Shown: positions 1 to 37,348 of the stretch, one piece after another
How positions within the stretch are numbered: the stretch's first letter is position 1
Layout: each line of letters begins with the position of its first letter
Origin: Psammoneis japonica
Taxonomy: Eukaryota
Assembly (NCBI GenBank): GCA_008632985.1
Contig: QPGO01000009.1
Span: forward strand, 62,001-126,000
DNA length: 64,000 nucleotides
Direction: 5' to 3'
Program-made: the position numbers and the translations under genes
Notes under the pieces: model-generated
Database searches by the model: none
What the model was told of the DNA's origin: nothing
Seen by the model: the letters and a program-made list of their open reading frames with translations, nothing else

Positions 1-29
1 TCAAAGTGGACAATATCCACGTCATTACT

Positions 30-1500
30 GCTTCACACAAGAACGACTTTGACGAAAGAAAATGAAGGGATTGGGGACATTGACCATGATGAAGCCACGG
101 CAGCTCTTTAGTTTATAATGGGCAAGGACTGTCAGAGCAATTCAAAAATTAAGCCTTTCACACATGAGGGTTGAATGTTCATGCGTTTCAGGCTGGGTCG
201 ACGACACAGAAGAGTAAGGGACTTTGCGCAACAGTATTCATACTGACGAAACCCAATTCCTAATGAAGTATCTTACAATAAATGCTCACTGCTAGATTCG
301 GGCAAGGTCTAAGACTTAAGATTCATGCTACTCACGCTCTCCGGCAATTCGTCCCCACCGCTTGGACGAAGCTTCTTGCTCGGTTTTCAACTCGGCCCAG
401 GTAGAGACTCTTTTGCTGGTGCTGCGCTTGAACACGGTACGTAGCCACGCACCTGATCTGGAGAGAGAATGTTGAGATATATGGCAAGAACGGGCCAAGG
501 ATTTGCGGAGGGTGCAAGAACATCTTCTCGTCGATGACCCCAAGATCGACAAGGACTTTCACAGAAGGCTTGAAGGCATCGGTTTTGTGATATTTGATGT
601 CACGTAAGAAATCGATTATCTCCAAAGCTTCTACTTCCGTTTTGATAACGCTCAAATCCTCCACCCTCTGAACACCCATCTCGGCCGCAGCGATGTCAAA
701 CATGCTCAGCTTCCTAGGAAGAAACGACGTGGCTAGCCACACCTTCAAACCTTGGTAAGAAAAGAGGGCCGCTTATGATCACGAAATTCTCGGGCTGATG
801 TCAAATAGGTGCGTGATTTCTTGAAGGTGGCTCCATCGTTTTCAGCGACTGCAGCTTAGAAGTTCTTCTTCAACTTCTTGGAAGTGACTAAGAGCTTCTC
901 CAGATGCTCCACATACTCCTCAAATTGGGCGTGGTAGCTGACCATAAATGTGCTAAGTGCTTCAGTATGCTTGTTCATCTGATCAATTTCAAGCCGGAAG
1001 CACCCCCTCCAGCGCTCATGGTCTCGAAGTAATCTTTCTGTTTCATGTAATTGGCGGCAACCTCGTACGAAATACTCCTTTGTCGTTCGAAAGCTGGACA
1101 CATTCCTTGACGGATGCAAGCAGTACATTCCTTGACGGATGCAAGCAGTGCGCGGGTGCGATCGTCCTTGCAAATATCTTTTTAAGACTTGACGAGTCTG
1201 AGGCAACGGGGCGGTCACGAACGGAGACGTCGGAATGGGCGAGCGCATCAATGCTTCGGTATATGAATACTCGTACTGAGACCCGTGGCGACTGCCCGGA
1301 GTGCTGAAGCTGTACTGCGATGCAAATATCTTTCGAGACGCTGGAGTGATGAAGAGATGAGAGGAAGCGAGCATTCACGAGAAACAAGTGACAGTTGTCG
1401 TTGGTGCGTGAATTGTGAGCCTGTGGGTTGGAGCAGGTCACGAGGAGAAAGTTTTTTAAGTGCGCGCGAAAACAAGATCGACTTAACCACGATCAAAATG
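30..1500 (-). pseudogene. Fragmented gene of unknown function; diverged paralog of 23965-25320 (opposite strand)
   Basis: ORFs 332-748 and 1043-1441 share peptides (EALEIIxFLRDIxYHKTDA, MFLHPPQILG, HNSRTNDNCH) with the 23944-25090 region; broken into several frames. Confidence 0.55.
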
Positions 1501-1699
1501 TGACAAAAATAGTACTTACGACGTATGGCTTCCTGTGATCCGGTGGTGTATTAATGATCGTGTCTACAGTACTTATTGAATGAAAGCGACTTCGATGGTC
1601 CAGTCATGGATGGCACGATAAATCAGAAAACAGAATCACGTCATTCCACGACACTTTTTTCGCTCGAAAGCAAGGCAGACCGGGAGCACCGATTCCAAA

Positions 1700-3091
1700 T
1701 TAAGCTTCTCCGGTCTCACTTTGGACCGTCAAACGTTCATACACATCATTCAACTCCATACTACTCAAATGCTCCTTTGCCTTTGTCAATCGTTGAGCAT
1801 AAATCGTTCCAAAGTGAAACGAGACATTGGGTACATCCTTGACCGATGAAAGAAGACTCCAGCTTTCCCTCTTTGCTTTAGCATCGGAATCAACTTGGTT
1901 CTCTTCTTCCTTCTCTAACTCTTCTTTGGCAGTCGTTACACCACCATACGACAATTCATAGACAGAAGAATCCTTCTCGTCTTCGCGAAGAAGGAGTTTG
2001 ACTCCGGTGTGTCGGTACGTTTCTTTCTCCGCAAAGTCTTGATCCTGCAGCTTGAAGGCCAAGTACGAAACGGGCGACATGAGCGCAAACAACTTCTTGG
2101 AGGAAGATTTGGGCATGATTGTAACCGGATCGCCGGCATTAGCAATACGCAAATGACGCAGAACGTGAGTCTCTTCCAAGTACCGAAACGCTTTCTGGAA
2201 TGACATGTCCCCGACACGAGGTGAAGCGACACTGACGCACGTAATGGGAGTGGGAATCGAGGTGTCGCCATTGAGTAGCTCAGCCGCAACTTCCATGGCA
2301 AATAAGGTTGCCAATGCTCCTCCTAGCGAATGTCCCGAACAATACAGCTTGTGAGTCTTGAATCTGTCGTCCTGCTGGAAGAGCTCCTTGACATGGGTAA
2401 GGATTTCGTCGTACTTGTTTTCGCTCCCTCGGAGGCGCCTCTTGAGAAGATACTCGTCAAACCCATGATGCAACCCTATCTTACTATCCTGTCCTTTGAT
2501 ATCCTTCAAAGGATTATCCCGCTTGCTAAAGGAGATGGAAGCATCACAGACAAAGTCTGCCGGCGTGACTGAACCTCGGAAACAAACTGTAATTCGTTTG
2601 CGTACTGGATCGACTCCAACCGCATACACAAGTTCCTTATCTGGATTATCATCGCCATATTTTGTAATATACGCTGGCTCAAGGTTCTTCTCCTTCCATG
2701 GGTTTGACCACTTTTGTGAAGAAGAATGACGTTGGTATCTTTCTTGGATCGCTTTCAGAGCACTCATTGCCATTTCGTGGTCTGAATCCCCCAGAGCTTT
2801 CTTAATTTCCTCCAAATTGTCATGAATCACCGCCAAGGCTGTTTCGAGCGTGAGTGGCAGCTCCAAGATCCGCTCAGGGTCCTTATTGAGTTTGGTGTCC
2901 TCTTGTTTGCACATACTTCTCAAGTCCGTAAGGGTGTAAATCAACAGAGCCGCATTAAGCATCTCGTCCGCCTCTTCGTATAAGTTTGGATAAGTGTACG
3001 AGTCCCAGTTGAAGGACGCCTTGGCCTGCCCCGATATGTTGTCTTTGGCATTGCCAACGCCGCACAGCTTCATAAAGGAGTCCAACACCAT
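1700..3091 (-). CDS. Class 3 lipase (alpha/beta hydrolase), 463 aa from the first ATG (MVLDSFMK)
   Basis: GHSLGG nucleophile elbow, ITVCFRGS, HHGF, SPRVGD and DPVTIMP motifs in one uninterrupted ORF. Confidence 0.88.
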   Translation of the reverse strand: MVLDSFMKLCGVGNAKDNISGQAKASFNWDSYTYPNLYEEADEMLNAALLIYTLTDLRSMCKQEDTKLNKDPERILELPLTLETALAVIHDNLEEIKKALGDSDHEMAMSALKAIQERYQRHSSSQKWSNPWKEKNLEPAYITKYGDDNPDKELVYAVGVDPVRKRITVCFRGSVTPADFVCDASISFSKRDNPLKDIKGQDSKIGLHHGFDEYLLKRRLRGSENKYDEILTHVKELFQQDDRFKTHKLYCSGHSLGGALATLFAMEVAAELLNGDTSIPTPITCVSVASPRVGDMSFQKAFRYLEETHVLRHLRIANAGDPVTIMPKSSSKKLFALMSPVSYLAFKLQDQDFAEKETYRHTGVKLLLREDEKDSSVYELSYGGVTTAKEELEKEEENQVDSDAKAKRESWSLLSSVKDVPNVSFHFGTIYAQRLTKAKEHLSSMELNDVYERLTVQSETGEA

Positions 3092-3389
3092 GGTGAGAAC
3101 GAGTTCTGGAACTGCGGACTGCGGCGGCTGGAAAACTGTCAAACGGCTTTCTTTTCGTGCAGACAGGCAGACATGCGAGGAATGAGGAATTACATTCTTG
3201 ATGATGATGCGACGTCGCAACGTAGGACGTGGGGCTACGTGCTGGGAAAGATTTTCCTCTCTCTAGATTTTCCCGGCGATGGCGGATGGTGGCCCACTGT
3301 GCTGCTGGCACAACGATGAAGACGCTTCCTGCTGGAAGCACCACACCGCGCTGGCACAGACAGCTGCCTCCACGACAACCCCTCGGGAG

Positions 3390-3756
3390 TGCAGTGCGCG
3401 ACTGTCACACACATGTTTGTGATCACACATTGTTTGTGTGTCAATCGCACCACAGTCGTGGATGCGCACAAAGGACAGAACGATCACACAGAGTTGATCG
3501 GATGTCGAGAATTGCAAATACGATCGATTGACGATGTTGACATCTTGCGTGTCAATGGCAATCGCATCCGGACAATCTGTTGTCACGAATGTGTTCTCCG
3601 AAAGGCCTTTTGTCTGTGGAAGCAGTGCAGAAGCTTCAGGCCATTGAGAACTAGTTCGGAGAAACCAAAAATCACAGAGCAAAATTCAATCTTATAATTT
3701 CCACTTTTCGCACACTGTTCCACTTTCGTTTGCACTCGTTCTTCGAGCATGGTGCA
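3390..3756 (+). repeat. 5' LTR of Gypsy copy 1
   Basis: Colinear 367-bp match to 7746-8112; TGCA...TGCA termini. Confidence 0.92.
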
Positions 3757-6700
3757 TTGTGTGTGCACACCACAGAAGGCAAAAAGCACGGAAAATGAAA
3801 ATTTTAACTGATGTGCCTTTGCAAATTCTTCTACAAACAGGAACGAATTGCACCAGTTCTGCTGGAATCGATTTCCGAGCGGAAGAAGCTCAAGCCGAGC
3901 AGTGCCTCAAGATGGAACGCTGTTTTTCGTCTGCCAGACAAGAGGATTCGCTCCAGTGCGGTCTGTTCCAAGCACCCAAGGATCAAGGGCTCTCAAGTGC
4001 ACCGCATCATCAAAAAATCTACACCAAGTCATGGTTGCAGAGAGTGCAAGTTCCGAGTCGATCAGGTCCGAGAAATGCGTCTGGCATGCAAGGAGAGACT
4101 GTTGGAGAGTTTTTGGAGACCGAGTCAACGAGCCTCGAGTCCAAGAGCAAGATGGAACCGTTGGAAAGCACCTCAAGAGTCTCACGTCTCATGTCTTTCC
4201 AAGAATTGCACTTCAGAATCAGAGTTGTTGTTTTCAAGACGATCTGAAGAAACCAGAGCTGCTTGACAGCAAGAAAGCCTCTGTCAGACCCAAGAGGTCA
4301 ATGATGAGAGTCTGTGCAACCCTCAGATGGATTCTAAGTCGAATCTAGCGGGAAACCGAGCGCTGATTTATCAGCTGTCACTCGCACTGCAAGGATGGCA
4401 GCATCAGTCTGCTGTCCAAAACAATCAACTGTTGCAACTCATCCTTGATGAGCTGATTAAGTTTTGAGTCATCCAAAGGTCGTTCATGACGTCCGTGACG
4501 AAAAAACACATCAACTCAGGCTCTGATGGCGCAGTTGGTTCCAAAGTGAAAAAGGTTCCAAATTTGGTTCCAAAAATGGTCTCCCACATGGCACCAGAAC
4601 AATCCAAAGTGAATGCAAGGTCTCATCTTTGAAAAAAGAATGCCTGCATCACGGATTGAAGCTGTTCTAAAAATGAACTGGCAAAAGAGTGCAAGGGTGA
4701 CTCTGAAAGAGACCCAAAAATGCGCCGTTCAAATGGCAATCGCACGCGGTCGCGTCGCGACAACGAAAATGCCGCTCGCAAAAAAAGAGATGAACGTCAT
4801 GATTGATCAGGCGGTTCAAAAAACACTCAAAGCGAGTTCCTTGAACAAAGAAAAAGAGCACAAGGGCAAAGAATCAGATTCTGATGCCCTCAGTGAAGAA
4901 AAACACCAATTTGATCGGATGATCCAGACTGAATCCGAAGAATGATTTTGGTCCATTCACGAATTGCATGCTTTGCTGGACATTGGGAAGCCTGGAAAAA
5001 AGGCAGAAACAATTCACACTGGTCCAGGAGTCATCATCAATGTGAACACTTCCTTGGGAAAGGAGAAAAAAAAAAGCATCTGCGTGTTCCTGTCGACAGC
5101 GGAACATCGTCAACCACAATTTTGCGCAAATTCGTGCGAAAGTTGAGAACACAAGAATCCGCCACCAAAAACTTGGGAAACCAAGGGTGAGCTCTTTACG
5201 ACTGACAGTGAACACCGAGTTCAGTTCTCACTGTGCAAAATTTAAGGCATGCTGACATGCAAACAGTGCACGCTGAAAACACCAAATTTTCTTCAGGTTC
5301 AAATGACACGATCATGGGACGCGACTTAATGTCCAGTCCTGCAAGTCACATTGGACTGCGCAAATGAAGAAATCTAATGGGAAGAAGCAATCACCTTATG
5401 AAGAATGTTCACACACTCTTCGATGCCGATGTTTTCAAGCTGAAAACCGATCACATTGAAAAACATGACGCCGTGAACAGAGTCAATGACGGAACCAATG
5501 GTCCTCGACTCACATTGTCACGCCATCGATCTTAATCAAGTGACAACTGCGGCGATGCATCTAACCCAAATGAACACAACCAACTCAATCTTCTTCTTAA
5601 GAGGTTGAAATCGTTTTGAAAAGTTCCTCAGACGAATGCATGGGAAGCACCAGTGGATCTCATCGTGGAAAATCTGACGCGATTCCACGACGCGTGAGAA
5701 CCTTCTCCTATCACAGTCTTTGGAGGCGTCCAATCAAAAGGAGTTTGACCTGTTATGAAAGATTGAAGTCTCAAGAATGAAACTGCTCTGAACAAGTCGC
5801 TCTGAGACTCATTGTCCAAAGAAAACAGGTCGAGTTCGACCGCACCCGACACTCAGAAGCTCAGTGTAAGGTTCACACAGGTGGTGTATCCTTTACCCAA
5901 CATTCAGGAAATGCTGTTGAAGCAAGAACGTTTCACACATGTAATCTGTTTGATTCAAACATGGAATGCCACCATGTCAAACAAAAAAAGCACACGTCGT
6001 GCTCACACGAAAATCATGCCGTGGGGAGAAAATGAGTGCTGTGGACTTCCAATGAGAATCTATAGAGCCCCAGATATTTTTATACAACACTTGAGTGAAC
6101 TCACAACAGGTTTGAAGTTGTCAGAACGACCACATGTGATCGTTTGTGCCTGACAAAAGTAACTTCAAAACATCACCTGTACAAGTAACAGCTTAACACG
6201 GCATTCAAACGACTAGAACAGTCGCTTAGAAGGTTAACAACAAAAGTCCTTCACTATTTAACTTGAAATAAACTATCAAGACTTCCATGCGTAACGACAT
6301 GCAATCGATTGCAAAGAAAATGGAGGCGATTCAAGCAATCGCAACACGAGAAAAACGTAAAGAACACTACGACATCTCGTTGTCATACGTTACTATTATC
6401 GAGACATGTAGTCTCAACGATCTCCTGTACAATACTAGCCAAATTCACCTCAATAAAGGTCAAACGGCAAAAGTACAAGTACGGAACGAAAAGTCTCCGA
6501 AAATATGGAGCGCATCAAATCAAAAACTATATTGTTATCATACACGGATTTCAATATTATACGTTACAACGGAAAAAAGAACTTCTGTCCATAGTGAAAA
6601 CACTTATAAAATTCCGAAATATACTGTTTGGCCAACAGATTTATACATATACGGATCATAAGACACAACGGACAAAGTCATACGTTGACAACTTCAGTCC

Positions 6701-7745
6701 CAAATTAGAATACAACGAGGGCAAGGCGAACATCGTCGCGATAGACGCGATCAGCCGACTTACTATAGAAAATTGAATCCTACGACAATGTCCTACCGTT
6801 AAAACGGGATAAAGACATTCCCTCCAAATTGTCGGACGCGACATATCATACGAACACTTTTCGTGGAGGCGAGCGAGATCGAAAAATGCTCATGTCACAA
6901 GGATAAAATCGCCTTTTTAAAGGACGATTTAGGAAAAAACAGTGACAGATTGGCACACATTATACGTGTCCACTTCACACTGGCAAAAGACAATCTCACA
7001 ACACCCGTACGGTTGTATTGTACAATGTACGAGGCAAGACATTAAAACACACATCATGTCGACACACCAGATGTGCCAAAGATCTAGAAAAAGAAAAGAA
7101 AAATGGACATTTGTCCACTTGGTGCACGAAACCAGTGCCTTCGGAATGACAAAATGACGCCGGCATGTCAGAAAGAAACGTCCAAATGACGATTAAAATC
7201 CAACTGACAGATGGTTGAAGTGCAAAAAAAAAATCCACAATGGAATTCACAACCATCACAGGATTGATCATCAAGACGAAATGGCCACAATGTCTTTGAC
7301 CATCGTTCGTCATCACTTGTGAAATGTGGCAGCGCAGCAGAGCAATGTGGCACACAAAGCAAGCCCGCCAAACTGCATGAAATCCACAAGCAAGCAAGTG
7401 AACGCCACAATTGAGAGTGCACATTAAGCACTGGGCACGATGCTGTGCACAATCGATGTCAGGAAAAACACTTGCTCCAGGACAATTGGTCCTTGTGTTC
7501 ACATCAACAAGAGCGTCAATGAGAATGCTCGACGCAATGCCATGTGTGTGCACATTAAGTGAGAAACAAACAATGTCACTCTCAAAAGACATTCGGAAAT
7601 TGGAAGGGCCCTGCGTTGCCCATGCAAAACAACAACAGTCATTGCCAATGGCACAATGCAGTGAAAGTGGAGACATTGTTGACACTGTCAATGTCCGTCG
7701 AATGATCCACTTGCAAATGACTCCAATGTGCAATTGGGGAGGCGA

Positions 7746-8112
7746 TGCAGTGTGCAACTGTCACACACATGTTTGTGATCACATGTTGTTCACGTGTCAA
7801 TCGCGCCACAGTCGTGGATGCGCACAAAGGACAGAACGATCACACAGAGTTGATCGGATGTCGAGAATTGCAAGTGCGATCGATTGACGATGTTGACATC
7901 TTGCGTGTCAATGGCAATCGCATCCGGACAATCTGTTGTCACGAACACATTCTCCGAAAGGCCTTTTGTCTGCAGAAGCAGCACAGAAGCTTTGGGCCAT
8001 TGAGAACTCGTTCGGAGAAACCAAAAATCACAGAGCAAAATTCAATCTTGTGATTTCCACTTTTCGCACACTGTTCTACTTTCGTTTGCACTCGTTCTTC
8101 GAGCACAGTGCA
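7746..8112 (+). repeat. 3' LTR of Gypsy copy 1
   Basis: Follows the PPT and is followed by the TSD GGAG. Confidence 0.92.
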
Positions 8113-9747
8113 GGAGGATGTGGCCAACCCCGCTGGGCTCTTGTGGCAATGAACCCAGAGAGACAGCCCTGCCACTTCCTCATGGTTCTCTTGATGTGCA
8201 ATTGGCGTGATGTCTCTCCAAGCTTTCCCCTGCATCATGTGTGATTGTGAAGGACTTGGACAGCAAACAAGATTCTCTTCATGTTGTGCAATGGACGCGA
8301 AGCTGTCAAAAGAGAGAAACCATCAAGCTTGCAGCGCCAATGCTCGTGTGCACCATGCTGACAAGACACATCTTTGTTTCTGCCCAGCCCCGCATCAACT
8401 TTGAGATGAGCACCAAATGTGGGGTTCAATGGAAAGCCTTCCATGCTGTCTCTTTCAAGCTCAGCGCACTCTTTTGACACCGCAAAAGAGCCCAGCACCA
8501 TGCTGGTGGTAAAGCGCAACTGCAGCGTCATGAGAAGGCAGTGTCAATGCTGCTGGTTTTCCAAATTTGTCAGGACATGAGTCGGAGGAGGAAGGCTTGA
8601 ACACGAGCTCAACAAGAGCTGAGTTTGCAGAGCAAAAAATGGCGGCACTCTTGATCATGCCAGACGCAGCAGCGGCCATTTCCTGCTTGCAGGTGGGAAG
8701 GCTTTCCACAATGGCTTCCTCAGTGGCTTTGTTGGTGGTGGCAGGAAAAGCACAGTTTTTCTCAATGCGGGTCTGGATGACAAAATGAGCAAGACTCTGA
8801 ATGCAACATTTGAGCCAAGGCTCTGTCGACTTGTTGAAGAAGACAGCATTGCCATTGGAGTGCGGAACAATTGAAAGAACCTCTTGAACAGATGGGGCCA
8901 GATCAAGTTGAAATGTGCCAACTTGTTCATCATCGAAAAGCTTCTTCGAAGTCGACTTCAAAGCAACGAAAGCCAAGAGTGCGGCAGTGTCAACATTGCC
9001 GATTGAAGCAACGCCACCGGCAAGGATGGCAGCAAAGAGAACAACAAAGACCATGAGGGAGATCGACATGGACGAGTTGTCTGTTTTGTGAGATGGAATG
9101 CGAAAGCGGAAAGGGCGGAGCCATGATTCGTGTGCTGGCGGCTGCGTGGTTTCTACACAGTCCCAGAGATCACAAAACCGGGACACATTTTTTTTTTCTG
9201 TTGTCAAAACCTGACCAAAACACCGTTCAGCGTTCCTCGGCGCCAACCTCAATGTCGTTTTGGAGACTCATGACGTGATCAACTGTTGCAATGCCGACAG
9301 GTGATGATTTGAACTGCTGTGCTTCCGACGTGTTGTCGTCCTGCAACTTCTGCTGCCACAACAACTCAGGCCAAACGTTCTCGGTGTCATTGCCCAACAA
9401 ATAGCTAGTAAAAGACTCTTTCAAACTTTTCATTATGTTCCTGTTTGTTTTGCTTAAAAGCACGAAAGCTAGAGCTTAAGCCAAGTTCATGCTTGACAAC
9501 ATTCGTGCGGGATAGGAGCTAGGACCGAACGGTCTACGACTCATATGATAACTCATTAAGTGGACAAATGAAAAGCTATTGGTTAGAACGTACTTCACAT
9601 ACTTCAAGCTTGATTATTATTTACAACATTGTCAAGCTATTCTTTCTCTGAATATCATGGCAAGCACACCAACACACATACACATATCCTTGGAGACAGA
9701 TAGGTCCCCAGCTGAAAGTGGCGTTGAAAGTATACGCAAGCTGGACT

Positions 9748-10085
9748 CTATCTGTCCAACTCAGCCAAGTTGAGCTTGGAAGCTCCCTTTGGAAGAAGCT
9801 CGGTGCCCTGCGGGGCAGGCTCAACATGCTCATCAAAGATCCACTCCTCGCGATCGTCCGTATCCGAACCCTGGGCCTTGAGGCGACGGCGGAGCGCTTT
9901 CTCGGCCTCCATGATCAAAAAGACGGAAACCGCCATCAAAATGGTAATACCCCACTGGGTTCCGTCCATACCTGACATGCCAAAGATGGTGTCGTTCAAA
10001 CCGGGGGTGTAGGTTGTGAAGAGCTGGAGCACAATGACAATAATGCGGAATACCACAGAGACATGTTGCCCTTGAAAATACGCGG
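9748..10085 (-). pseudogene. C-terminal fragment of a P-type cation-transporting ATPase
   Basis: IVLQLFTTYTPGLNDTIFGMSGMDGTQWGITILMAVSVFLIMEAEKALRR resembles the last transmembrane helices of P2-type ATPases; no upstream ATPase domains present. Confidence 0.6.
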
Positions 10086-10646
10086 TAATTCCGTTTCCAG
10101 TGAATACGCTTGTAGCTGTGGTTGTTCTTGATAGTACTGAAAGAGTTCCGCAATTCCGCAGCATGCTCGGGTGTGTTGTATTCCGCCTCGAGTAAGGCAT
10201 TCATCGACGACAGCACATACGGAAGGGATTGTACGTATCCGGTCAATTGTCTTGCCAAGTCGTCTGGAGTATTTTTAATCTCGTTTTTCATTGGTGACTG
10301 TTTCGGTGTATTCAACAGGTCGTCGTCATGAAAGGACCAATTGTCATTATCGTTGTTATGTTGTGTAGGGCCCTAGTCGCAGTATCGTTTTGTTTCTCAG
10401 AAGGTGTTGTAGGTTGATAACTGCTGCTTCTGCTTTGATTGTTATTCTCGGTCAAGAGACTGTCGTCATCAAACGACCATGCATCGTCGTCGTCGTCGTC
10501 GCCATTGTTGTCGTTATTGGTGGAAAGCAAGTCATCTACGTCATCGTCCCATCCGTCTTGGACGAGATCGTCTGTGGACGACGCCATGGTGTTTTTTGTG
10601 TTGTGTGTCGCCATCCCCTCTGCAGCTCTCCACTCTCCAAGGCACA

Positions 10647-10792
10647 TAAATTTTGATAGTGCAGTGTAGATCCCTACGGGCTTTCAACGGAGGTACTTAA
10701 ATTTTGATAGTGCGCTGTAGGTCCCTACGGGCTTTCTACAAAGGTACTTAAATTTTGATAGTGCCATGTAGCTCCCTACGGGCTTTCTACGA
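10647..10792. repeat. Three tandem copies of a 51-bp unit
   Basis: TAAATTTTGATAGTGC..TGTAG.TCCCTACGGGCTTTC starts at 10647, 10698 and 10749. Confidence 0.9.
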
Positions 10793-13029
10793 CGCCCGTA
10801 GCGCTTCAGTAGAAATTTGGTAAAGAGGAGCTTTTTGTGCGGGGCCACACGATTTCTACGAGTACGTAGACAGTACGGGGCCGGCTACTTGATCATACCC
10901 ATCCTCAAAGATGGATACATCTATTCAAAATGACGCTACGGGGCTGGCCGAAGAATTCTACTGCATGTCAACGGCAAGAATTTCTACTTTTTTTCAGTAC
11001 CACAGATTCGCTACGTGCGGCCCCGTACTCATAACACGTGCTTTCCCTTCCCATGCAACGGCCAAAGTGGATTTGAACTTCGCACACAATTTTCGACAAG
11101 CTACCGGCGGCCTCAACCGGTCCCGGCGTCCGTGACTGAAATTTCATAACGGTGAAGTACGACAATCGAATAATTCGATTGGACTCAACCGGTCCCGATT
11201 TTGCATTAAAAACGGCATGTTGTACTTTGATGCATCTCGCCATGGCATACGTCGTGATGACGATGCGTTATGCAGGGGGGATCTTTTTCTACCAATGTTG
11301 TAAAGAGGTTGATATGTTGGTTTGGTTTCCTGGGGTGCTTTGGTTGCTACACATGCTATAAACGGTTGCGTGCCTCGACTCGTGACTCGATTACGGCACG
11401 GTGCTGGTAACATCTGAATGGTCGACAACGTTGCGTGGTAAGTTCTTTCCATATTTTCTCATTTTATACCGTTTATGCGCTCACTAAAGATGTTGTTGGT
11501 GCTTTGTTATAGGTTCATAGGTTCATTGATCGTCTCGTACGGTTGATTATCGCTTCTGCAATATTGGCATCTTGTTCACGGCGTTTGCACCGCATCAGCG
11601 CTCCAAGTAAGGAGCCTTTCGCTTGCTCCCACGCAATGATCTTTTGTGGAAAGTTTCATATAATATTGGTGGGCTTGTGACACTCTTGGCTTGCTTCTAA
11701 GGGACTTGATCGGCTCGTAATAACGGCATTTCGTTTTTCGGCCATCACAATTTCTGAAAAGTGCATGCATTCAGAATGAAACGATGCGAAGGAGCATCGA
11801 GGACACCTATGACGTTGTTGTTTGTCAGACAGACGTACCATAAACCGGAGAAGCTACCCCTGTGAGTATGTCGTGATTGATTGAGTTTTGGTCTCGTTTT
11901 GACGAAACTCGCATGCCTCACTAGCGTTTTTTGGTGTCTCCAGTTCATGCGTCAGGCATGTGGTCTATAATGACCCTTTCTTCCTACTCTACAATGGCAT
12001 TATCATCACTATCTAAGAAATTATATCGCCCACGCTATTTTGGGAGATCTTGGTAGTGTATCGACTAGTCTAGGCTTTGCAATGGGTAAAATGAGGAGGT
12101 GGAGGCTTTTATGGCCGGGCTCCTCGCCTACTCTTGGATGCGTGGATGCAACGAACAGCTGGTAGTACTTGATGCCATGAAATTTGGTAGGGCAACTCAG
12201 AACTACCTCTGAAAGGTGCACTAGTGAGTATACTGTGATTTGTGTTCTCATTGGCTTATTGTTGTGTGCTTTGTTCCGCTCATATTTTCATTTTGCCTGT
12301 CATTTTTTCAGCATGGATACCTAGGACTGCGAGCGCTTAAAGTGGCCTTTCCATGCCAATGCTCTACACAACTGAAGTCCTTTGATAATAGTTGTGTTTT
12401 TGGGGAATCAGATTGTGGATCTTTCAGTATCTAGTGGGGTCTAGAGAGGTACCGTACGAGTTATGGATGCACTGTACTGCTAGAGTGCGCGTGCGCGTGC
12501 TTCGCCATTACGAATGATGACTAACCGATCTTACAGATCTTAGGTGGAGACAATTGTCCTGGTCTTGCATCCGTGAGGCAACTGTGGAAGTATCAAGGAA
12601 ACTATCGAATGCATTGTCCATTTGTGATCTTCTACTCGAAGCGGCGTTTTCGGCATTTTCCGTCGACGGCGAAAAGCTTGATAATCCATTAAAACGACTC
12701 ATGGTATTTTGTCATTCTTTGGAGGTATGATAGTATAACTCTTGGTATTGTAGTTTTCTTTAGTGGTATGATTGTATCGCTTGTCCGTCAGGAAGAACAA
12801 ACTACCGGTATCTTGCGTTGTCATTGCGCTGTGGGGTTGATGCGGCGCAGCGGCGCTCGGAATTCAAATCGAGCGAGCGTCCGTCAGTCAGCCGGCGGGA
12901 CCGGTTGAGGCAGCGGGACCGGTTGAGGCCGCCGGCAGCAAGCGCCATCCTCCAATCTATCATCACCCGTCAGACCGTCAAGTTCAATCATCACCATGAG
13001 CAAGCTTCCGCATTCCACCCACGGATCTC

Positions 13030-15128
13030 CTCCCGTGTGGATGGAAACATCGCCTCTTGTTCCTCCAAGGGAAGGCATTGGCAGATGCTCGACTCCTGTC
13101 AGGCTTGGAGGAACTCCAAGTGTTGGAGGAACTCCACTGACTCCTTCAAAGATCGCCGACTCCGAGAACTGCTTTGTCGCCGACATGGTGGAGGATTTGC
13201 ATTCAGGCCCACCACCCGAGAAGCCATCGACCCTTTTCGACATTGACAAGCCAACTGAACACCCTTTGGTCCGACTGAGCCAGAGCAAACTCCTTGTGCA
13301 GAGCAAAAGCTGGAGGGCCGATGTTGAGGAGAAGCAGACGATGTTGGACGATGCACATTCCAAGAGAGAGGGGATTGCAGAGGAATGCAACGAGAAATCT
13401 GAAAGTCTTGCTGAAGTCAGAGTCAAAGCTCACCCGCTCTTGGAGGACATGGAAAGCCTTGGAACAGAGCTCGCTGCCTTGGAACAAGTCAGCAAGGAGG
13501 AAGACAAGAAGATCGCCAAGGCCGAGGATGAATGCAAGTGGAAACTTCGAGTGACAGACACCATTGATCCACTCTTAGCACCTGACGGCACCAAGAAGCC
13601 CTTTGGAGGTGAAGCAGACAAGGAATTTGTTCGGCGCTCTCTGGGGTGTGCATCCCGCGCTGTGTGCATGCGCATGAATCGAACCGCCGTCGAGATTCGC
13701 CTGAGTGTCCTGGTCAACTGCGGGTGGAGCTCAAACATGCATTTCATGGGACTCTGGCGAGTGCCCTTAGAATCACAACATCTCTGGGAGAGCAAACATG
13801 GAAATGCTCCTGACCTGTGATGTGGCAAGCGCAGCATGTCCCTGGATGATCACCGAGGAAGGCTTGCTGACTGTCTTGGTTTAGTCGCGGGTTCCGATGG
13901 AGACACAGAGCCATTCAACCAGGCACAAGTTCTGGCAGATGCCAGTGAGGATGACCTCAAAAGCGTGTTGCTTGGAGAGGATGCGGATGCGGAGAATGGC
14001 AGCAACTCGGCTGATCGCCCCAATCTGATGCGACTTGGGTCTGTCGAGTTGGAATGCATCCATGACAAGCTTCGTCATCGCAAGCGCCTCCCTGTGCGGA
14101 TGGATGCATCGCCTCCAATTCCTCCAAGGGCAGGCATTGGCAGACACTTGACTCCTGTCAGGCTTGGAGGAACTCCGCTGACTTCTTCAAAGATCGCTGA
14201 CTCCGAGAACCGCTTTCTCGCCGACCTGGTGAAGAACATGTGTTCAGGCCCACCACCCGAGAAGCCATCGACCCTTTTCGACATTGACAAGCCAACTGAG
14301 CACCCTTTGGTCCCACTGAGCCAGAGCAAACTCCTTGTGCTGAGTGAAAGCTGGAGGGCCGATGTCAAGGAGAAGCAGACGATGTTGGGCGACGCGTTCC
14401 AAGAGAGAGGGGATTGCAGAGGAGCACAATGAGAAAGCTGAAAGTCTTGCCGAAGTCAGAGTCAAAGCTCACCCGCTCTTGGAGGACATGGAAAGCCTTG
14501 AAACAGAACTCGTTGCCTTGGAACAAGTCAGCAAGGAGGAAGACGAGAAGATCGCCAAGGCCGAGCATGAGTGCAAGTGGAAACTTCGAGCGACAGACAC
14601 TGTTGACCTGCTCTTAGCACCTGACGGCACCAAGAAGCCCTTTGGAGGTGATGCAGACAAGGAATTTGTTCGGCACTCCCTGGGATGTACATCCCATGCT
14701 GTGTGCATGCGCGTGAGTCGAACCGCCGTCGAGATTCGCCTTCGTGTCTTGATCAACTTCGGGCGGAGCTCAAACGCGCACTTCACAGGACTCTGGCAAG
14801 TGCTCTTAGAATCACGATCTCTTTGGGAGAGCAAACATGGAAATGCTCCTGGCCTGTGATGTGGCAAGTGCAGCATGTCCCTGGATGATCACCGAGGAAG
14901 GCTTGCTGACTGTCTTGGTTTAGTCGCGGGTTCCAATGGAGACACATGGCCATTCGACCAGGTGCAAGTTCTGGCAGATGCCAGTGAGGATGACCTCAAA
15001 AGCATGTTGCTTGGAGAGGATGAGGATGTGGAGAACGACGGCAACTCGGCTGATCGTTCCAATCTGACACGGCTCAGGTCCATCGAGTTGGAATGCATCC
15101 AAGATGAGCTCCGTTGTTGCAAGCACCG
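13030..15128 (+). repeat. Tandem duplication of a ~1.04-1.06 kb coding-like unit inside a TpA-depleted block (unknown protein, probably TE-associated)
   Basis: ORFs 12996-13820/14344-14859 and 13836/14875 encode near-identical peptides (SGPPPEKPSTLFDIDKPTEHPLV, MSLDDHRGRLADCLGLVAGS). Confidence 0.88.
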
Positions 15129-16789
15129 CCGACTTGCCTGAACAGCCCCTGAAATTCGAAATTTGCACAGCTGTTGCATGTGGGTGTCTGACGATGCACT
15201 TCTTGTTGAAGAACCAGTGGCAAAAGAGATTCCTGGAATTGGGTTCCAGCATGTGTGGCAAAGTCTTGCTGAACTGACGTCTCGGACCCATTGCAGTCAT
15301 GCAAATGGAAGCAGCTTCTAAAGTGCAAATAAAGAGAGTTTTGGCTCTGCTCACTGCTTTCCTCTCATCACTTACAAAGCAGCATTTGGTGCAGGACTTA
15401 AGATGTTTTTGTGCGGTTTCGCAAGCAAGAACTGCCATTGATCCATTCTTCACCAAAAGAGGCCAAGTAGAGTGAATCAACTGTGGCCTGTTTGTGCCTC
15501 TTTAGGCCCAACTTTGCTGACAGGTTCAGGGAGGACACAGTTCTGGATTCGCGTCAGTCTTGTTGCGAGCCCATGCAAACTTTCCGTTCTCCCCGCCTTG
15601 ATGCCGATGCATTTGATGACAGTCGTGAGATCCTTGATTTAGCGTGCACCACTTTTCGGCAAATGTTGTTTTGTTGTGACAAGCCATTCTCTCCTCACAT
15701 GGAGTGAAACGAGCCAACTCACCCTTCTTTGTGTCTTTCGTGTTGCAAACAGTTGGAACGCAGTGCCGAGTGTCAAACGAAAATTCCGCAGCTGTTTGTG
15801 ACCAAAAGGCGGAGCAACGTGAAGTCAAGTCCCCGACCCCAAGGGCCATGTTGCACGATGTGCTCGAGAAACTCCAACTCTAATCCACAGTCCTCACAGC
15901 ATGCTCCAAAGACTGCCATGTCTGACTCGACTTGCTCAAAGCTGCGCGGCAAGTGTTGCTGTGATTCCAACACAAAATCCACCAGTCCCTTGACGTGATG
16001 CCCCCAATTTCGACCAAACCCACCCGGTCGACTCTTGTTGCCCTTGATCCAAATGACAAAGTCATGGCAAGCACTCCCTTCTGCAACAACAATGCCGGGA
16101 CAGCCTGGTTTTAGACAGCCGCCGAGCGACAAATCGCGAGCTTCTCAAACAATGCTTCTGAGTCTGCCTTTGTCAACAATGTGGTGACACCAAATCCAAC
16201 GCCTGCCAAAGCCAGAGTGTTCCTCTGCAATTTCTTCCATTTTTTTTGTTCTCCACTTGGGTGTCGCATTTTTCCTCAATGTCCGGAACGTCTTGTGATT
16301 CCCGAATCACTTGCAGCACGGCCTCTCCTCTGACAAGAGCCTCGGCTTTGGTCGTCAAGACAGCAGACAGCTCTGGACGAGCTGCTCTCGACAAGCCCTT
16401 GATGAAAATGACTGCGACATGCAAAGGACGTTTTTCTGGACACCCGGGAACCAACGAGAACTGCATTTTGGCATGGTCAAGAGACAGCTCCAGGTCGAGC
16501 TGTGGCGCTGTTGTTGTTGTTGTTTCAGTGGAATTGAGGTTCTTCTCCACAAGGGATTGCGCGTGTCGCAACGCGGATGGACTCTTGACGACAAGATCTT
16601 GTTCACAAATTGCTTGGAGAACTTCAATCTCTTCCAATGCCCTCCGAGGGATTCCTCGAGATTCACAACAGTCGAAGACAAAACAGTTCAAGGGAGCAAC
16701 AACAGACCATGCATGTGCGACAACTGTTGCAATGGGGTTGTTGGTTGTGAGCGGCTGGCAGTGGGTTCAGTGCGGGTAAAATGGTTGCA

Positions 16790-17753
16790 CGGGATGCGGG
16801 TGATCACGCGCACGGGTGAACGAATTCACGTGTCACACCGGTGAATTTGTGCTGGTTTGCTGCGCAGGGAGAATTCACACGGGTGATCACACGGGTGAAT
16901 TTGCACTGGTTGACTGCGCAGGGAGAATTCACACGGGTGAATTTGTGCTGGTTTGCTGCGCAGGGAGAATTCACACGGGTGAATTCACGCGGGTGAATTT
17001 GTGCTGGTTTACTGCGTACTGTAGAATTCACACGGGTGAATTCACACGGGTGAATTTGCACTGGTTTACTGCGTAGAATTCACGCGGGTGAATTTGTGCT
17101 GGGGAGAATTCACACGGGTGAATTCACGCGGGTGAATTTGTGCTGGTTTACTGCGTACCGGTAGAATTCACAAGGGTGAATTCACACGGGTGAATTTGCA
17201 CTGGTTTACTGCGTAGAATTCACACGGGTGAATTTGTACTGGCTTACTGCGCATGGAGAATTCACACGGGTGAATTCACACAGGTGAATTTGTACTGGTT
17301 TACTGCGCAGCTAGAATTCACACGGGTGATCACACGGGTGAATTTGTGCTGGTTTGCTGCGTAGAATTCACGCGGGTGAATTCACACGGGTGAATTTGCA
17401 CTGGTTTACTGCGTAGAATTCACACGGGTGAATTCACACGGGTGAATTTGTGCTGGGGAGAATTCACACGGGTGAATTCACGCGGGTGAATTTGTGCTGG
17501 TTTACTGCGTACCGGTAGAATTCACACGGGTGAATTTGCACTGGTTTACTGCGTAGAATTCACACGGGTGAATTTGTACTGGTTTACTGCGCACGCGGGT
17601 GATCACACGGGTGAATTTGTGCTGGTTTACTGCGTAGAATTCACGCGGGTGAATTTGTATTAATACACTGGTTTACTACGCATGGAGAATTCACACGGGT
17701 GAATTCACGCGGGTGAATTTGTGCTGGTTTACTGCGTAGAATTCACACGGGTG
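16790..17753. repeat. Complex satellite built from GAATTCACACGGGT and GAATTTGTACTGGTTTACTGCGTA modules
   Basis: Dozens of interleaved copies of the two modules; many EcoRI sites. Confidence 0.95.
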
Positions 17754-19728
17754 GCGAAAATTGTCAAGAAACAGAGAGTTCGTCAAACTTGCGGCTAGTG
17801 CTCGTGTGTACCGTACTGACAAGACACATCTTTGTTTCTTCCCAGTCGACGGTGAGAACACGCGTTGGAGGCATCGGGAGGAAACAAGCTGGAAGCTTTT
17901 GATTTGCAGGTCATTCGTTTTCGGTTGATGTACGTCTAATCCAGAACTTGTTGAGATTTTTACGATCTTGAGATGTTGCGTCGACGTCCCTCGACGCAAC
18001 CACTCCAAGGTCTTCACCCACGAGACGACAGGGAAGTATTGGTGCTCTTGGGCCGCCGCATGATCTTACCCTGATACTTCCAGAACCCGCTTGAGATCTT
18101 CATGTCTGCCTTGCTTTGTTTTGGGCCAGCCAAATTGGGCAGAAACGCGGAAAACTGGTGTGATGGGTAACGTAGGAAGTGTTGCTGCAATAGGTTGGTC
18201 AATTCTTGCATTGAAAGTGGTTGTCATTTTCCATTTGAAATTAGAAATTCTTTGCGCCAAGGACCTTTGGAAGGCGACTTCGAACGAATGGCGGGCTCTG
18301 ACTGAACAGGACGACACTACTGCCGTTGCTCCTGCTGCCGTTTCACTTTGGAGCAATGACCCCGTGCGTGTTGTGGCCTCACAAGCCGGGTATAATGATA
18401 CTTTCGAGTAGTACGAAAACAAGGAACAATCTTTGACACAGAAAATCTAAACGATTTATTCAATGCCACGCCAGTACGCGGTATTCTTGGCTCAGTTCCT
18501 ACACCGCCCCAAGACAAGCAAGAAAGTGAACCTCAAGGACAATCTCTAAAGTAGGAGACGGTCTTCACTGGGCTCCAAAATGGTAAGCCACAAAATAAGA
18601 ACCCGTGGAGCAGTGTAGTATAGGAGAAGCCGAGCTACTACAACTTGTACTCACCAGCAGTCCATTTGCCAGCCTAAAGTGCAACAAAGACATACCGGAT
18701 GATTGTAAACACGGAGGTGCGGTTTAGCTGCAGGTAGCATGAAGCGGGCTATCACACTAAAGCTTCTCTAGAGTAATTGTAATGTCGGAATCAATGGTTG
18801 GCGTTCATCTCCATGAACGCTTCCACCCCCGTCGTTGTACTGTTTACGCGCCCAAACTGTTCACTCGTGACTTTCTATGCATTAAAATGTTTCAGATTCA
18901 ATTTCTTCGGGGGGCCTGCGGACTTCCATGAGATACTTGTACCGCGTAATCGCCGCCGGTGACACAAGGACTGATATAAGTACCGAACAACACCGAGCTT
19001 TGAAAGGTTGAACCAGACTCGGTACGGAAATACCGGTACAAATCTAATCAAGCACGTTCTGGACCAGCACTTGATGCAATTTTCTCTTTTCTATGCAAAA
19101 ATGAAAGGCACAAGAAACATACCGGTACGACTGTGAACTAAATGAAAAACTATTGTTGGATAAATCCGGAGACTCGCATGAGTATTTGAATCTCCCTGAT
19201 TGGACAAATGCCGAATTCGTCAACAACGACTCATCCGGGCGCAAGGGCAATAATACAGACGACCTCCGGGAGGTGTTGGACTGCCGATTCATAACTGCCG
19301 GGAAAGGAGTGAAAATCACGCTTCCTTGATGCAGGGCTGTCCAGCCGGATATATCAGAGGATCGATGCGAAGTAAGAACTCTCTTCCTCGCGTTCACCAA
19401 GCGAGGGACCCGGGCACCCACCTCAGCACCGGTGGACTACGTATGATGATACCGCCCTTCGAAGTGACTGGCTCTGGTTTGTCTTGATAGATCCCTGCCA
19501 TGTAGGCGATAATCCAGCCAATTTCCCAGAAAGTTATTGTATTTCGGCACCGAAGGAAAGCCCAATTACTCCGGTCGTATTAATTCTATAATCCATGACC
19601 ACAACGACAACACGGAGTCCAGTGTAGAGAGTTTCGCCAGACGAACGCCTTGTCTGACGAACTCTATGGTGGGCGCAGAGACTGCAATAGCAGGCTGGCA
19701 ATAAGAATGAATCTAACGACTGCATCCA

Positions 19729-25639: not shown

Positions 25640-26890
25640 CTAGTCGGCCATAAGAACACGATCAGCAAGAAATGCCCCTACAGGTCCACCAACTAGAGGT
25701 CCCGCAATGTACACTCCCATATCCTTCATGGCAGCACCACCCCACCCGGCAAAAACAGTTACGAGGCGAGGACCAAAATCTCGGGCCGGGTTTATACCGG
25801 CACTTAAGGACGAAAGTATGCATATTTGAATGAGTATCACCATATCAATGTCAAACGGCTAAAGACGATTTCAAAAGCTTGAACTTACCCGGTGAGGGAA
25901 CCAAGGAGCAGAATCATGCAGCCGATAGCAGTGCCAACAAGGACCGGTACAGCGCCGGAAGGAACGTTCTAGAGGAGGATGCAATGTGCAAGCGTGAGTC
26001 CTTCTATCACAGGTATGAAATTGCAACAAAGAAACGGCATTCGTCGCAACTTACGCTCTTTTGATGAGTGATGGCAAAGACCGTGAATACGAGAAATCCC
26101 GTGCCGATGGCTTCGATCAAGAAAGCGTGGCCAGGACCACTGACATCCTTTGAAAGACTGTGTTCATCAACGGAAAACAGGATAGGTGTGTAAACGTCAC
26201 GTAAGGGTGGCAGTCAAAGCAAATACGGGATTGGTCTTCGCACCTGTAGTAGTCGCCAAACGCAGCTGCACTATGGATAGAATCCGCTTCACCCCTGCTT
26301 AACCCGTTTTTCGTTTCGTATCGACGAATTGCAGAGTTGAAAACAAGAAGATTGATACCCGCAGCAAGCATGGCACCAATCAGCTGGGCAATCCAGTAGG
26401 GCATAAGCTTCTTCATCGAAAAGTCGCCAGGCCGGACCAAGGCAAACGAGAGAGTCACGGCAGGATTGATGTGGCCACCTGACGCCTCTGACGTGCTATA
26501 AATGGCGACAGTTGCGGCCAATATCCAAGCGGAAGCAACCTGCCACATGCCATTCTGGGAAAAGTTTTTGACAAAGACAAATTGAGAACACGGCATGATT
26601 GCTAATGTAAACTACACTGCAGAACATGACACTCACAAGACCACCCAAGTAGAGGTTGACGCAAAGGCCGCCACAGCCAACGAAGACTAAACCAGCAGTA
26701 CCAAACATTTCGCTAATGCAAGCGCTCCTTAAGCTGGGAGCTGGCGCTGCCGCCGCTTCACCTTCGGTTTGCGGGATTGATCCTGAAACAGAGAATAAAA
26801 GGAACGCTGTAAGTCATCCCAAATCCGAATACAGAATACCGTGCATCGTGCTGTGCTGCACAATCGATGAAACTTACCGTATTCCGACAT
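25640..26890 (-). CDS. MIP-family aquaporin/aquaglyceroporin (multi-exon)
   Basis: GGHINPAVT and AGINPARDFGPR NPA boxes; ATG at 26890 followed by a GTAAG intron gives MSEYGSIPQTEG...EMFGT; further GT-AG introns. Confidence 0.88.
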
Positions 26891-27152
26891 CCTGTTGGTA
26901 TGGCAGTCCTTGCTTTGACAAACTCTGACACCAGGGTCCGAACAATGCCAAATGACAGGATTCTGATCGTGAAAACAGAAAAGATTCGGACGGTGTCAAG
27001 AAAATGTGACGAAAGATGTGGAGAGACACGAATCTTTCCTACGTACACGAAGAAACGTATTTGACGTGTGGGCCTCGAAATTGGCAACGCAACCCTACTG
27101 TACGGTATCCAAGACCCTCCTACCTGTGCGACTTTCTGTCGCTCACACATTA

Positions 27153-28841: not shown

Positions 28842-29000
28842 TACAGGGAAGTAACGCAACGCTGTTGTCTGATTATTTACAAAAATAGACTCTGGACTCT
28901 ACGGTGTCATACCAAGAGAGACGAAGATCCCCCCCGGCCGCTCAGGGATGCTTCTTGCAAAAGCGATCAACGCCTAAGTAGAGTCGTGAACCACGACTAA

Positions 29001-37082: not shown

Positions 37083-37348
37083 TACAGGAAAGTAACTCAA
37101 CGGGAGGCTTGGAGTTTGTTTGGGGACGAAAGACGAAAGATCGCGGCTTCAGAAACTCAAAACTCAAAACAGCTCATCCAACAGAATGAGTAGTCGAACG
37201 AGTCCAAATTGCTGTTACCGATTACTTGGTGTCTGTGCGGCGTAAGTGTGTAAGTAGAAATCTACAGGGGTTGTACTGCCATACAGCCACCGCACATTCG
37301 TTTCGGCAACGACGACACAACGAAAGAGAGGCAAGCGGAAAAACGACA

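Follow-up and report, generated by a model that had tools for sequence, protein, structure and literature searches.

What removes TA dinucleotides from an inserted retrotransposon, and does the change occur before or after the element enters the chromosome? This question is raised by a 64,000-nucleotide stretch of Psammoneis japonica DNA (GenBank assembly GCA_008632985.1, contig QPGO01000009.1, positions 62,001–126,000 of the forward strand; hereafter the window), in which an element flanked by long terminal repeats (LTRs) lies at 3390–8112. An earlier interpretation made without database searches, referred to here as the sequence-only reading, had held that the mutations separating the two LTRs arose after insertion, on both strands, at TpA. 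The analysis reported here leads to the same view. A chromosomal, TpA-directed and tract-limited conversion of A:T to G:C is very probably what has shaped this locus, and it is a kind of process already known from Bigelowiella natans.

The element and its immediate borders are composed of the following parts.

3386–3389, plus strand: left target-site duplication GGAG, with the same letters at 8113–8116
3390–3756, plus strand: 5′ LTR, 367 bp, reading TGCA...TGCA, delimited by alignment
3757–7745, plus strand: degenerate internal region with a gag-like part, a protease DSG motif, and remnants of reverse transcriptase (RT) and RNase H
7736–7745, plus strand: polypurine tract GGGGAGGCGA, abutting the 3′ LTR
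7746–8112, plus strand: 3′ LTR, 367 bp, with one ancestral TA retained (8077)
8113–8116, plus strand: right target-site duplication GGAG, matching the left copy

All features that mark an LTR-type retrotransposon are present, namely direct LTRs beginning with TG and ending with CA, a short target-site duplication, and a polypurine tract before the 3′ LTR; another copy of the family reads ...TTAGGGAGGCGAA ahead of its LTR. The internal portion of approximately 4 kb is without a long open reading frame (ORF), its integrase is largely deleted, and its protease motif was identified by eye. The element is classed as a degenerate Ty3/gypsy-type LTR retrotransposon. Since GGAG stands on both sides and the purine tract adjoins the 3′ LTR, the two LTRs belong to one insertion and are taken to have once been identical.

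The two LTRs align without gaps over 367 columns and differ at 26 of them, by 25 transitions and one transversion (A/C at 3653). Sixteen of these differences form eight reciprocal CA/TG pairs, which are joined by four TA/(TG or CA) and four CG/(TG or CA) pairs. The sequence-only reading had stated that the LTRs differ almost only by such reciprocal pairs of pyrimidine–purine (YR) steps, and 24 of the 26 differences indeed fall in these classes. Every example it quoted is present in the alignment, and the two differences it placed outside them, one transversion and one A/G outside TA, are those at 3653 and at 3518, the latter in the context AAT. When 26 transitions were placed on the LTR at random in 100,000 runs, reciprocal pairs averaged 0.36 and never exceeded five, against the eight observed; the ten adjacent-difference pairs observed were reached in none of the runs. 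The dinucleotides common to both LTRs comprise 19 CG, 37 CA, 27 TG and no TA. The 5′ LTR retains three ancestral TAs (3519, 3693 and 3695) and has gained a new one by a C→A transversion (3652–3653), which is private to this LTR when compared with other genomic copies.

The sequence-only reading had proposed LTR alignment and reconstruction of the ancestor as the check, with CG instead of TA at the CA/TG sites as the result that would refute it. Pair counts, other copies of the family and a protein outgroup agree that the variable sites of the LTR pair began as TA, not CG. A model with a TA ancestor fits the LTR pair with a hit probability of 0.9 per LTR (chi2 0.25), its counts being no site unhit, four hit in one LTR and eight visibly hit in both, or approximately 16 when concordant hits are included. 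A homogeneous model with a CpG ancestor, under which 19 sites are unhit, four carry a single hit and 16 carry two, does not fit and is rejected (chi2 24.6, p 7e-7).

Other copies were represented by 4673 contig pieces of run X1, aligned on 3300–7700 with at least 80% likeness. Counted over every listed variable place, there are 484 transitions (A>G 137, T>C 117, C>T 109, G>A 121) and 91 transversions. The per-site reading used the 40 best-supported variant places (548 more exist), and at 20 of these the window carries CA or TG where other copies carry TA. Among these 20 are sites 3428, 3436, 3438, 3448, 3618 and 3721 of the LTR pair, and TA accounts for over 90% of the depth at both 3618 and 3721. 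Sites inferred to have been TA account for 22 of the 26 differences between the LTRs. The window holds no second complete LTR pair, and the family-wide contig variation stood in, as an approximation, for a comparison with further LTR pairs. Two further LTR copies belong to the same family, one of them leading into a sister element that supplied the protein comparison.

59629–59896, minus strand: fourth LTR copy, an inverted fragment comprising the final 268 bp of the LTR and facing the third copy head to head
59907–60273, plus strand: third LTR copy, which is the 5′ LTR of the sister element running off the window; used as outgroup
61465–63477, plus strand: sister pol frame, covering protease, RT and RNase H, with RVT_1 and RT_RNaseH domains
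63449–64000, plus strand: start of the sister integrase with an H2C2 zinc domain (Integrase_H2C2, E 4.5e-18)

When all four LTR copies are aligned, the same sites carry every mix of CA, TG and TA, and occasionally CG. The sister element shows the domain order protease, RT, RNase H, integrase, as in Ty3/gypsy-type elements. It aligns with the internal region of the element at 3390–8112 at 65% identity with 549 transversions, a divergence too high for clean polarisation, and this comparison was used for the YR table only. Its pol frame is open because TAA and TAG are gone; it encodes a product of 670 aa with two Tyr, in which CVDD stands in place of the RT motif YxDD. The outgroup consisted of 120 listed pol relatives from metagenome contigs, which are 49–61% identical to it. 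Tyr content is 2.9–5.1% in all 120, against 0.3% in the sister pol, and Cys content is 3.7% in the sister pol against a median of 1.3% in the relatives. None of the 120 listed relatives is Tyr-poor, and in this respect no sign of TA loss was found among them. Conserved-Tyr columns were defined as those with Tyr in at least 70% of 40 relatives. Among the 19 such columns the sister pol has Cys (TGY) at 11, His (CAY) at four and Phe at two, with Tyr kept at two. The conserved residue being Tyr (TAY), an Arg (CGY) ancestor is excluded for these codons. Ile→Val replacements (9 of 10) and Thr→Ala replacements (3 of 3) follow a codon that ends in T, placing a TpA across the codon border, and Leu→Pro (CCA), Ile→Thr (ACA), Ile→Met and Val→Ala in the sister pol are consistent with xTA codons. 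A scan of the metagenome with the pol protein gave one 1.3-kb locus of 53% identity with ordinary TA (observed/expected ratio, O/E, 0.81), and a scan of viral_contigs with the LTR pattern gave no matches.

With the ancestral state in hand, the timing and the strand of the hits can be read from the LTR pair. At the 13 inferred TA sites, the 5′ LTR now has CA at three, TG at seven and TA at three, and the 3′ LTR has CA at six, TG at five, CG at one and TA at one. Independent hits on each LTR explain why a given site may now be CA in one of them and TG in the other. No overall strand bias appears at these sites (CA 9, TG 12), nor at the 20 places among the best-supported 40 that had TA as the ancestral state (13 CA, 7 TG); the excess of Tyr→Cys over Tyr→His (11 versus 4) is accounted for by flank context. 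Strand-coordinated runs were not shown, CA and TG being interleaved within 3 bp (codons 344 and 345) and the counts being too small for a runs test. A change made before integration would be copied into both LTRs, yet the LTRs differ, and hence the hits occurred after insertion. Editing of the sense genomic RNA cannot yield T→C on the plus strand and is disfavoured for that reason. These observations support the view that each LTR was hit independently in the chromosome, after integration, on both strands, at TpA. Both directions of change are seen in each LTR, and the claims of the sequence-only reading concerning timing and strand, together with its argument against ADAR editing of the RNA or errors of reverse transcription, are upheld; the latter is also borne out by TA loss in DNA that is not a retroelement. 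The hit frequency is approximately 2.3 per TA per LTR, compared with 0.003–0.006 per other site, a difference of two to three orders of magnitude.

One claim was not borne out. The TGCA termini had been taken as products of a canonical TGTA...TACA, but all LTR ends in the window (three of three 5′ ends and four of four 3′ ends) read TGCA, and none of the 40 best-supported variant places touches an LTR end. TGCA is thus more simply the original terminus.

The loss of TA extends beyond the LTRs and is confined to five tracts, which total 17.4 kb; none of them is assigned to a strand. Within the retroelement they are separated by a patch that keeps its TAs.

3265–5860: TA-free tract 1, beginning 125 bp left of the 5′ LTR and reaching 2.1 kb into the element
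5867–7085: TA-retaining patch inside the element (TA O/E 0.72–0.85)
7086–9401: TA-free tract 2, which takes in 660 bp at the end of the internal region, the 3′ LTR and 1.29 kb of DNA to the right of it
12959–17009: TA-free tract outside the retroelement, with a 1.04-kb tandem duplication and an RWD-domain ORF; ends in a tandem array
44341–48958: TA-free tract of 4.6 kb, just downstream of the 3′ end of the large-subunit (LSU) rRNA gene
58981–62959: TA-free tract over the third and fourth LTR copies and 2.7 kb at the start of the sister element

Over the five tracts TA has an O/E of 0.06, and CA and TG are raised to 1.42 and 1.57, respectively; outside them the TA ratio is 0.64, and in the ribosomal DNA (rDNA) it is 0.87. 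Expressed as frequency, TA amounts to 0.0039 inside and 0.041 outside the tracts, and the loss is 94% complete over the 17.4 kb. The borders are sharp, falling within approximately 100 bp according to TA positions and 500-bp profiles. In the tract at 3265–5860 the TA ratio is 0.03–0.24 per 500 bp. The tract at 7086–9401 contains only six TAs (7194, 7425, 7556, 8077, 8510 and 9154), and 30 occur within the 350 bp from 9402. The sister element likewise retains its TAs from 62960 onward. None of the 40 best-supported variant places lies between 5783 and 7068. The patch at 5867–7085 and the sister sequence beyond 62960 may reflect patchy tracts, conversion, or assembly from younger copies.

Two ORFs within the tracts illustrate what befalls coding sequence.

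8464–9267, minus strand: flanking ORF with a signal-peptide-like start, in the tract at 7086–9401; one Tyr in 268 codons
16176–16766, minus strand: RWD-domain ORF (Pfam 27.7 bits against a cut-off of 22.8); no Tyr in 197 residues

A Pfam search of the ORF at 8464–9267 returned no family. The RWD ORF carries the motif CPEKRP, where RWD domains have YPxxxP, and it looks like a host gene or gene copy that was inactivated as collateral damage. Because TA is lost in flanking DNA, in the tandem array and in these host-like ORFs, the loss is not a property of reverse-transcribed DNA. The array lies at 16833–17753, consists of units of approximately 14–96 bp around GAATTCACACGGGTGAATTTG..., and straddles the tract border. 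To the right of the border its units read GTAC and GCGTAG; to the left they read GTGC or GCAC, and GCGCAG. Variation between CACACGGG and CACGCGGG is also present in this array. The tract at 44341–48958 has only three TAs and is in addition poor in CpG (O/E 0.1–0.4), with CA and TG raised to as much as 2.3 times the expected level. Rich in purines and in internal repeats, it contains a gap of 137 N and gave no Pfam family at E <0.001. Each of the YR steps that are self-complementary, TA as well as CG, appears to have turned into CA/TG in this tract. Since TAA and TAG are gone, the TA-free tracts yield long false ORFs in every frame: 27 of at least 90 codons were counted in 4.7 kb (44300–49000) and 23 in 4.15 kb (12900–17050).

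Sequences that are duplicated or repeated outside the tracts served as controls.

27118–28900 and 35320–37141: recent duplicate of a CNNM/CBS-domain gene, 8.2 kb apart
49472–55421, minus strand: complete rDNA unit (LSU 49472–52875, 5.8S 53223–53377, small-subunit rRNA gene 53617–55421)

The CNNM copies are 97.9% identical over 1768 columns, with 38 differences (19 transitions and 19 transversions) and 66 shared TAs. In another duplicate, at 56.7/57.2 kb, 7 transitions and 8 transversions make up 15 differences, and 16 TAs are common to both copies. The duplicate at 13.0/14.1 kb, which lies in a tract, has 60 differences, of which 49 are transitions; these include seven CA/TG pairs, and one TA is shared. 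The rDNA unit stands between protein-coding DNA and a TA-free tract and is normally multi-copy, yet it is spared. The sparing of the CNNM duplicate and the rDNA indicates that duplication is not the trigger, and sets the process apart from repeat-induced point mutation (RIP).

Flank context was examined at the TAs that survive, of which 68 lie in tracts and 1995 outside. In-tract survivors are enriched for YTAR, with odds ratios of 6.1 for TTAA and 4.5 for CTAA/TTAG, and depleted for ATAC/GTAT (odds ratio 0.09) and ATAT (none of 68). The largest in-tract gains among tetranucleotides are of the form NTGC (CTGC, TTGC and GTGC). These contrasts point tentatively to T-A-C or T-A-Y as the preferred target. 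A second, rarer class of change appears as a private G in the window where the family has A, in the context A-A-T (once A-A-C), at 3956, 4044, 4124, 4546, 5219, 7513 and 3518. It suggests a relaxed specificity, with T much greater than A at the 5′ side.

Several observations weigh against a strictly TpA-directed chromosomal process. Four of the LTR differences involve CpG, and at two of these the 3′ LTR reads CG opposite 3437/3438 and 3448/3449, where other copies have TA; TA can thus end as CG, an outcome that strict TpA specificity does not predict. The A→G changes in AAT make up six of the 40 best-supported places, apart from site 3518, and those 40 places are not a random sample. The direction test, restricted to sites where one strand offers T-A-pyrimidine, gave 11 of 15 in the expected direction (one-sided p ~0.06), split into 7 of 8 Tyr codons and 4 of 7 places among the best-supported 40, and at sites where both strands offer this context Cys and His stand at 4:3. 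The TAC preference was derived from the composition of tract versus non-tract sequence, which differ in origin. The family is abundant, with a summed word depth in run X1 of ~75,000 over the LTR against ~10,000 over the interior, and the assembly is scaffolded (137-N gap at 44990), such that the LTRs may be partly an assembly mosaic; the same may be true of the patch at 5867–7085. Finally, the timing rests on assumed LTR identity at insertion and on a 4-bp target-site duplication, which has a chance of 1/256.

Taken with these reservations, the data are best described by the following sequence of events. An LTR retrotransposon integrated with identical LTRs. A localized process then acted in the chromosome, converting TpA to TpG or CpA on either strand by A:T→G:C change at the A of TpA, and ran until approximately 90% of TAs were gone. 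Its action was limited to sharp tracts over mobile DNA and some adjoining sequence, leaving an ordinary mutation spectrum elsewhere. The chemistry could be the deamination of adenine to inosine in DNA by a TadA/ADAT2-like deaminase with a 5′-T and possibly a 3′-C preference, directed to silenced chromatin. We give roughly even odds to this enzymatic route. TadA and ADAT2 share the A→I chemistry; their natural target, A34, comes directly after U33, and in bacterial tRNA-Arg the base next to it on the 3′ side is C (UAC), a context that fits the suggested T-A-(C). To our knowledge ADAT2 is universal in eukaryotes, so that its presence alone explains nothing, and we know of no basis for targeting TadA/ADAT2 to particular chromosomal tracts. 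As an observation apart, the two head-to-head LTR copies (59629–59896, minus strand; 59907–60273, plus strand) lie 10 bp apart and form an inverted repeat; it is a speculation that a hairpin RNA could form from 59629–60273 and might feed RNA-guided targeting.

The alternative that survives best concerns the base that is attacked. Instead of the adenine being deaminated, a modified T of TpA (e.g., 5-hydroxymethyluracil or a base-J-like modification) could mispair with G and produce T→C. TpA is self-complementary, and T→C on one strand and A→G on the other are indistinguishable in the present data. The idea also draws on the preference of 5-hydroxymethyluracil for TpA in dinoflagellate DNA. The AAT class and the 3′-pyrimidine effect can be read from the A side as W-A-Y, whereas a reading from the T side places the flank effect 5′ of that base; neither reading is decisive, and we regard a modified T as unlikely.

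An artefact, in which a modified base at TpA was misread or the repeats were stitched together from several copies, is very unlikely. In its favour, no record gives the sequencing platform used for the assembly or for run X1, X1 contains only 70% of the 31-mers sampled from window positions 1–10000, and the TA-retaining patch matches what most of the family reads, as would be expected of a collapsed consensus. Miscalls would nevertheless be partial, and the nearly complete loss described above includes single-copy-looking genes. Against an artefact also stand 828 aligned pieces that are at least 99% alike, the N gap pointing to a scaffolded assembly, and, in the preprint on B. natans, de novo mutations of the same kind that are Illumina-based (bioRxiv 10.64898/2026.01.13.699255). 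Moreover, the copy-to-copy variation among CA, TG and TA requires independent hits somewhere in the genome, whether or not the assembly is a mosaic.

Editing before integration (by ADAR on RNA, by errors of reverse transcription, or by a cDNA deaminase), with later ectopic gene conversion or recombination making the LTRs differ, would find plentiful conversion partners in the hundreds of family copies. The 5′-T preference also resembles the 5′-neighbour preference of ADAR, which favours a 5′ U according to the preprint (bioRxiv 10.64898/2026.01.13.699255); TAG, however, is a poor context here and not the best one. ADAR hyper-editing and APOBEC3 resemble the present case in leaving clustered transitions of deaminase type on retroelements. 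They differ in acting on RNA or minus-strand cDNA before integration, which gives one-strand changes in both LTRs, and APOBEC changes G→A. In the window, plus-strand T→C is as common as A→G (the CA and TG counts given above), the matching target-site duplication speaks against recombination between elements, and TA is lost in the right flank (8113–9401), in the tandem array, and in the RWD and secreted-protein-like ORFs. ADAR-edited retrocopies were rejected on the equal frequency of the two directions and on the difference between the LTRs, and the wider family of pre-integration routes is highly improbable.

A CpG ancestor, whose methylated form was deaminated to TG in one LTR and CA in the other, accounts for CG/TG and CG/CA pairs, of which there are four in the LTR pair and 16 in the 13.0/14.1-kb duplicate. 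It would also suit the five of the 40 best-supported places at which the window has TG or CA and most copies CG, and the depletion of CpG in the tract at 44341–48958. In the LTRs, though, 19 CpGs are intact in both copies and no TA is, which a single rate does not allow. The signature of CpG methylation decay is absent from them (CG O/E ~0.9), and among the window's sequences it is present only in that tract. At the LTR-pair sites among the best-supported 40 the other copies have TA and never CG, and the 15 codons now reading Cys or His have a conserved Tyr (TAY), not Arg (CGY). We hold this origin to be most improbable. Removal of TA by selection or GC-biased gene conversion with no targeted mutation is scarcely credible: TA is indeed under-represented outside the tracts too, as in many genomes, but the elements are dead (broken frames, YxDD lost), making selection on each TA implausible, and gene conversion would act on all A/T sites, whereas only one of the 26 LTR differences is A/G outside a YR dinucleotide, AA, AT and TT are still common, and the borders are sharp.

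The remainder of the window contains ordinary genes, four of which are listed below, and its scan for tRNAs found no genes.

9500–12900, minus strand: P-type cation ATPase, several exons, ordinary TA
26120–26611: aquaporin (MIP), ordinary TA
37428–38093: ribosomal protein S11 with a 100-residue N-terminal extension, ordinary TA
57804–58433: pseudouridine synthase, ordinary TA

At 40290–44043 on the plus strand, one gene apparently joins flavoprotein, ankyrin, GGCT/AIG2-like and phytochelatin-synthase domains, a fusion also found in metagenome protein P0009 (954 aa). The exons of this gene are long, and one intron is clear, reading GTAAGT...ATAG and spanning ~80 bp at 42018–42100. One four-exon gene of the window has exons of 0.65–1.2 kb with short gaps between them, and five other genes consist of uninterrupted frames of 445–597 codons that span whole Pfam domains. 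The closer relatives of one host protein, from metagenomes and transcriptomes, are 38–84% identical, none being near-identical. An exact 22-nt repeat, GACAAGACACATCTTTGTTTCT, occurs on the plus strand at 8360–8381 and 17818–17839, where none is expected by chance; the first copy is inside the tract at 7086–9401 and the second lies 0.8 kb right of the border of the tract at 12959–17009. It may be a 3′-end signal or a small repeat.

A search of the literature for TpA-directed A:T→G:C hypermutation found one report, the preprint of Mettrop et al. (bioRxiv 10.64898/2026.01.13.699255) on localized TpA hypermutation of integrated viral DNA in B. natans; the other matches concerned RIP, APOBEC and ADAR. 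According to that preprint, 231 of 302 nuclear mutations in mutation-accumulation lines fell in integrated giant-virus and virophage regions, and 230 of these 231 were A→G or T→C, all at TpA. The rate was ~6e-7 per site per generation, ~1000 times background, in some lines only. The B. natans genome holds 124 clusters that are poor in TpA and rich in CpA and TpG, and TpA-poor coding sequences are enriched for reverse-transcriptase Pfams. As the agent, its authors suggest a deaminase acting on adenine in DNA, with an ADAT2 homologue as candidate (all from bioRxiv 10.64898/2026.01.13.699255).

The window resembles B. natans in the almost exclusive A→G/T→C change of TpA to TpG or CpA depending on strand, in the limitation to foreign or mobile regions with a normal spectrum elsewhere, and in the TpA-poor, CpA- and TpG-rich footprint. 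The TpA frequencies are comparable (0.0018 in TpA-poor and 0.041 in all coding sequences of B. natans, against the 0.0039 and 0.041 given above), and the ~1000-fold elevation there is similar in size to the one calculated here, of two to three orders of magnitude. The targets differ: in B. natans they are a single-copy giant-virus insertion and virophage, with TAs still at 3.3% and 9.2%, and in the window they are high-copy LTR retrotransposons together with adjoining host-like ORFs and a tandem array, close to saturation with 0.39% TA left. The evidence differs as well, being de novo mutations in the one case and comparison (LTR pair, other copies, protein outgroup) in the other. In gene structure, B. 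natans has on average 8 introns of 182 bp per gene (Table 1, PMC13746701), unlike the long-exon genes of the window.

RIP of ascomycetes, as described in the same preprint (bioRxiv 10.64898/2026.01.13.699255), shares with the present process its action after integration at the DNA level, the dinucleotide-specific transitions on both strands, the destruction of chromosomal transposons, and the capacity to leak into neighbours. It changes C→T at CpA and creates TpA, whereas in the window TpA is destroyed and CpA/TpG are created; it is triggered by duplication, whereas the 1.8-kb CNNM duplicate and the rDNA are untouched. RIP was rejected for the window on these two grounds, the opposite direction and the spared duplicates.

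The locus thus shows the signature of a process already known from B. natans, together with its regional confinement. What is added is the demonstration from an LTR pair that integrated DNA is hit, the saturation of high-copy LTR elements, the sparing of duplicates and rDNA, the collateral loss in host-like ORFs, and a possible 3′ preference. This amounts to an independent confirmation, from sequence only and on a different target class, of a process known from one 2026 preprint, and the LTR-pair logic is a ready assay for any assembly. That an intact duplicate and the rDNA are spared distinguishes the mechanism from that of RIP and suggests guidance by chromatin or RNA; the tentative TAC preference offers a testable clue to the enzyme. 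There are also practical consequences. Dating by LTR divergence is inflated ~7–14 fold at this element (7.1% raw against 0.5–1.1% at non-TA sites), and gene finders will go on calling edited genes, whose proteins are devoid of Tyr and rich in Cys and His. It is possible, though we would not yet count on it, that TpA editing is not peculiar to viral insertions in one chlorarachniophyte but serves more widely to defend genomes, much as RIP does, and occurs in two or more eukaryotes. It would then be directed to tracts of chromatin and not to duplicated sequence, and be carried out by a TadA-like DNA adenine deaminase with a T-A-C preference. If so, LTR elements would lose all TA while ordinary sites change by less than 1%, and neighbouring genes would be inactivated as collateral damage.

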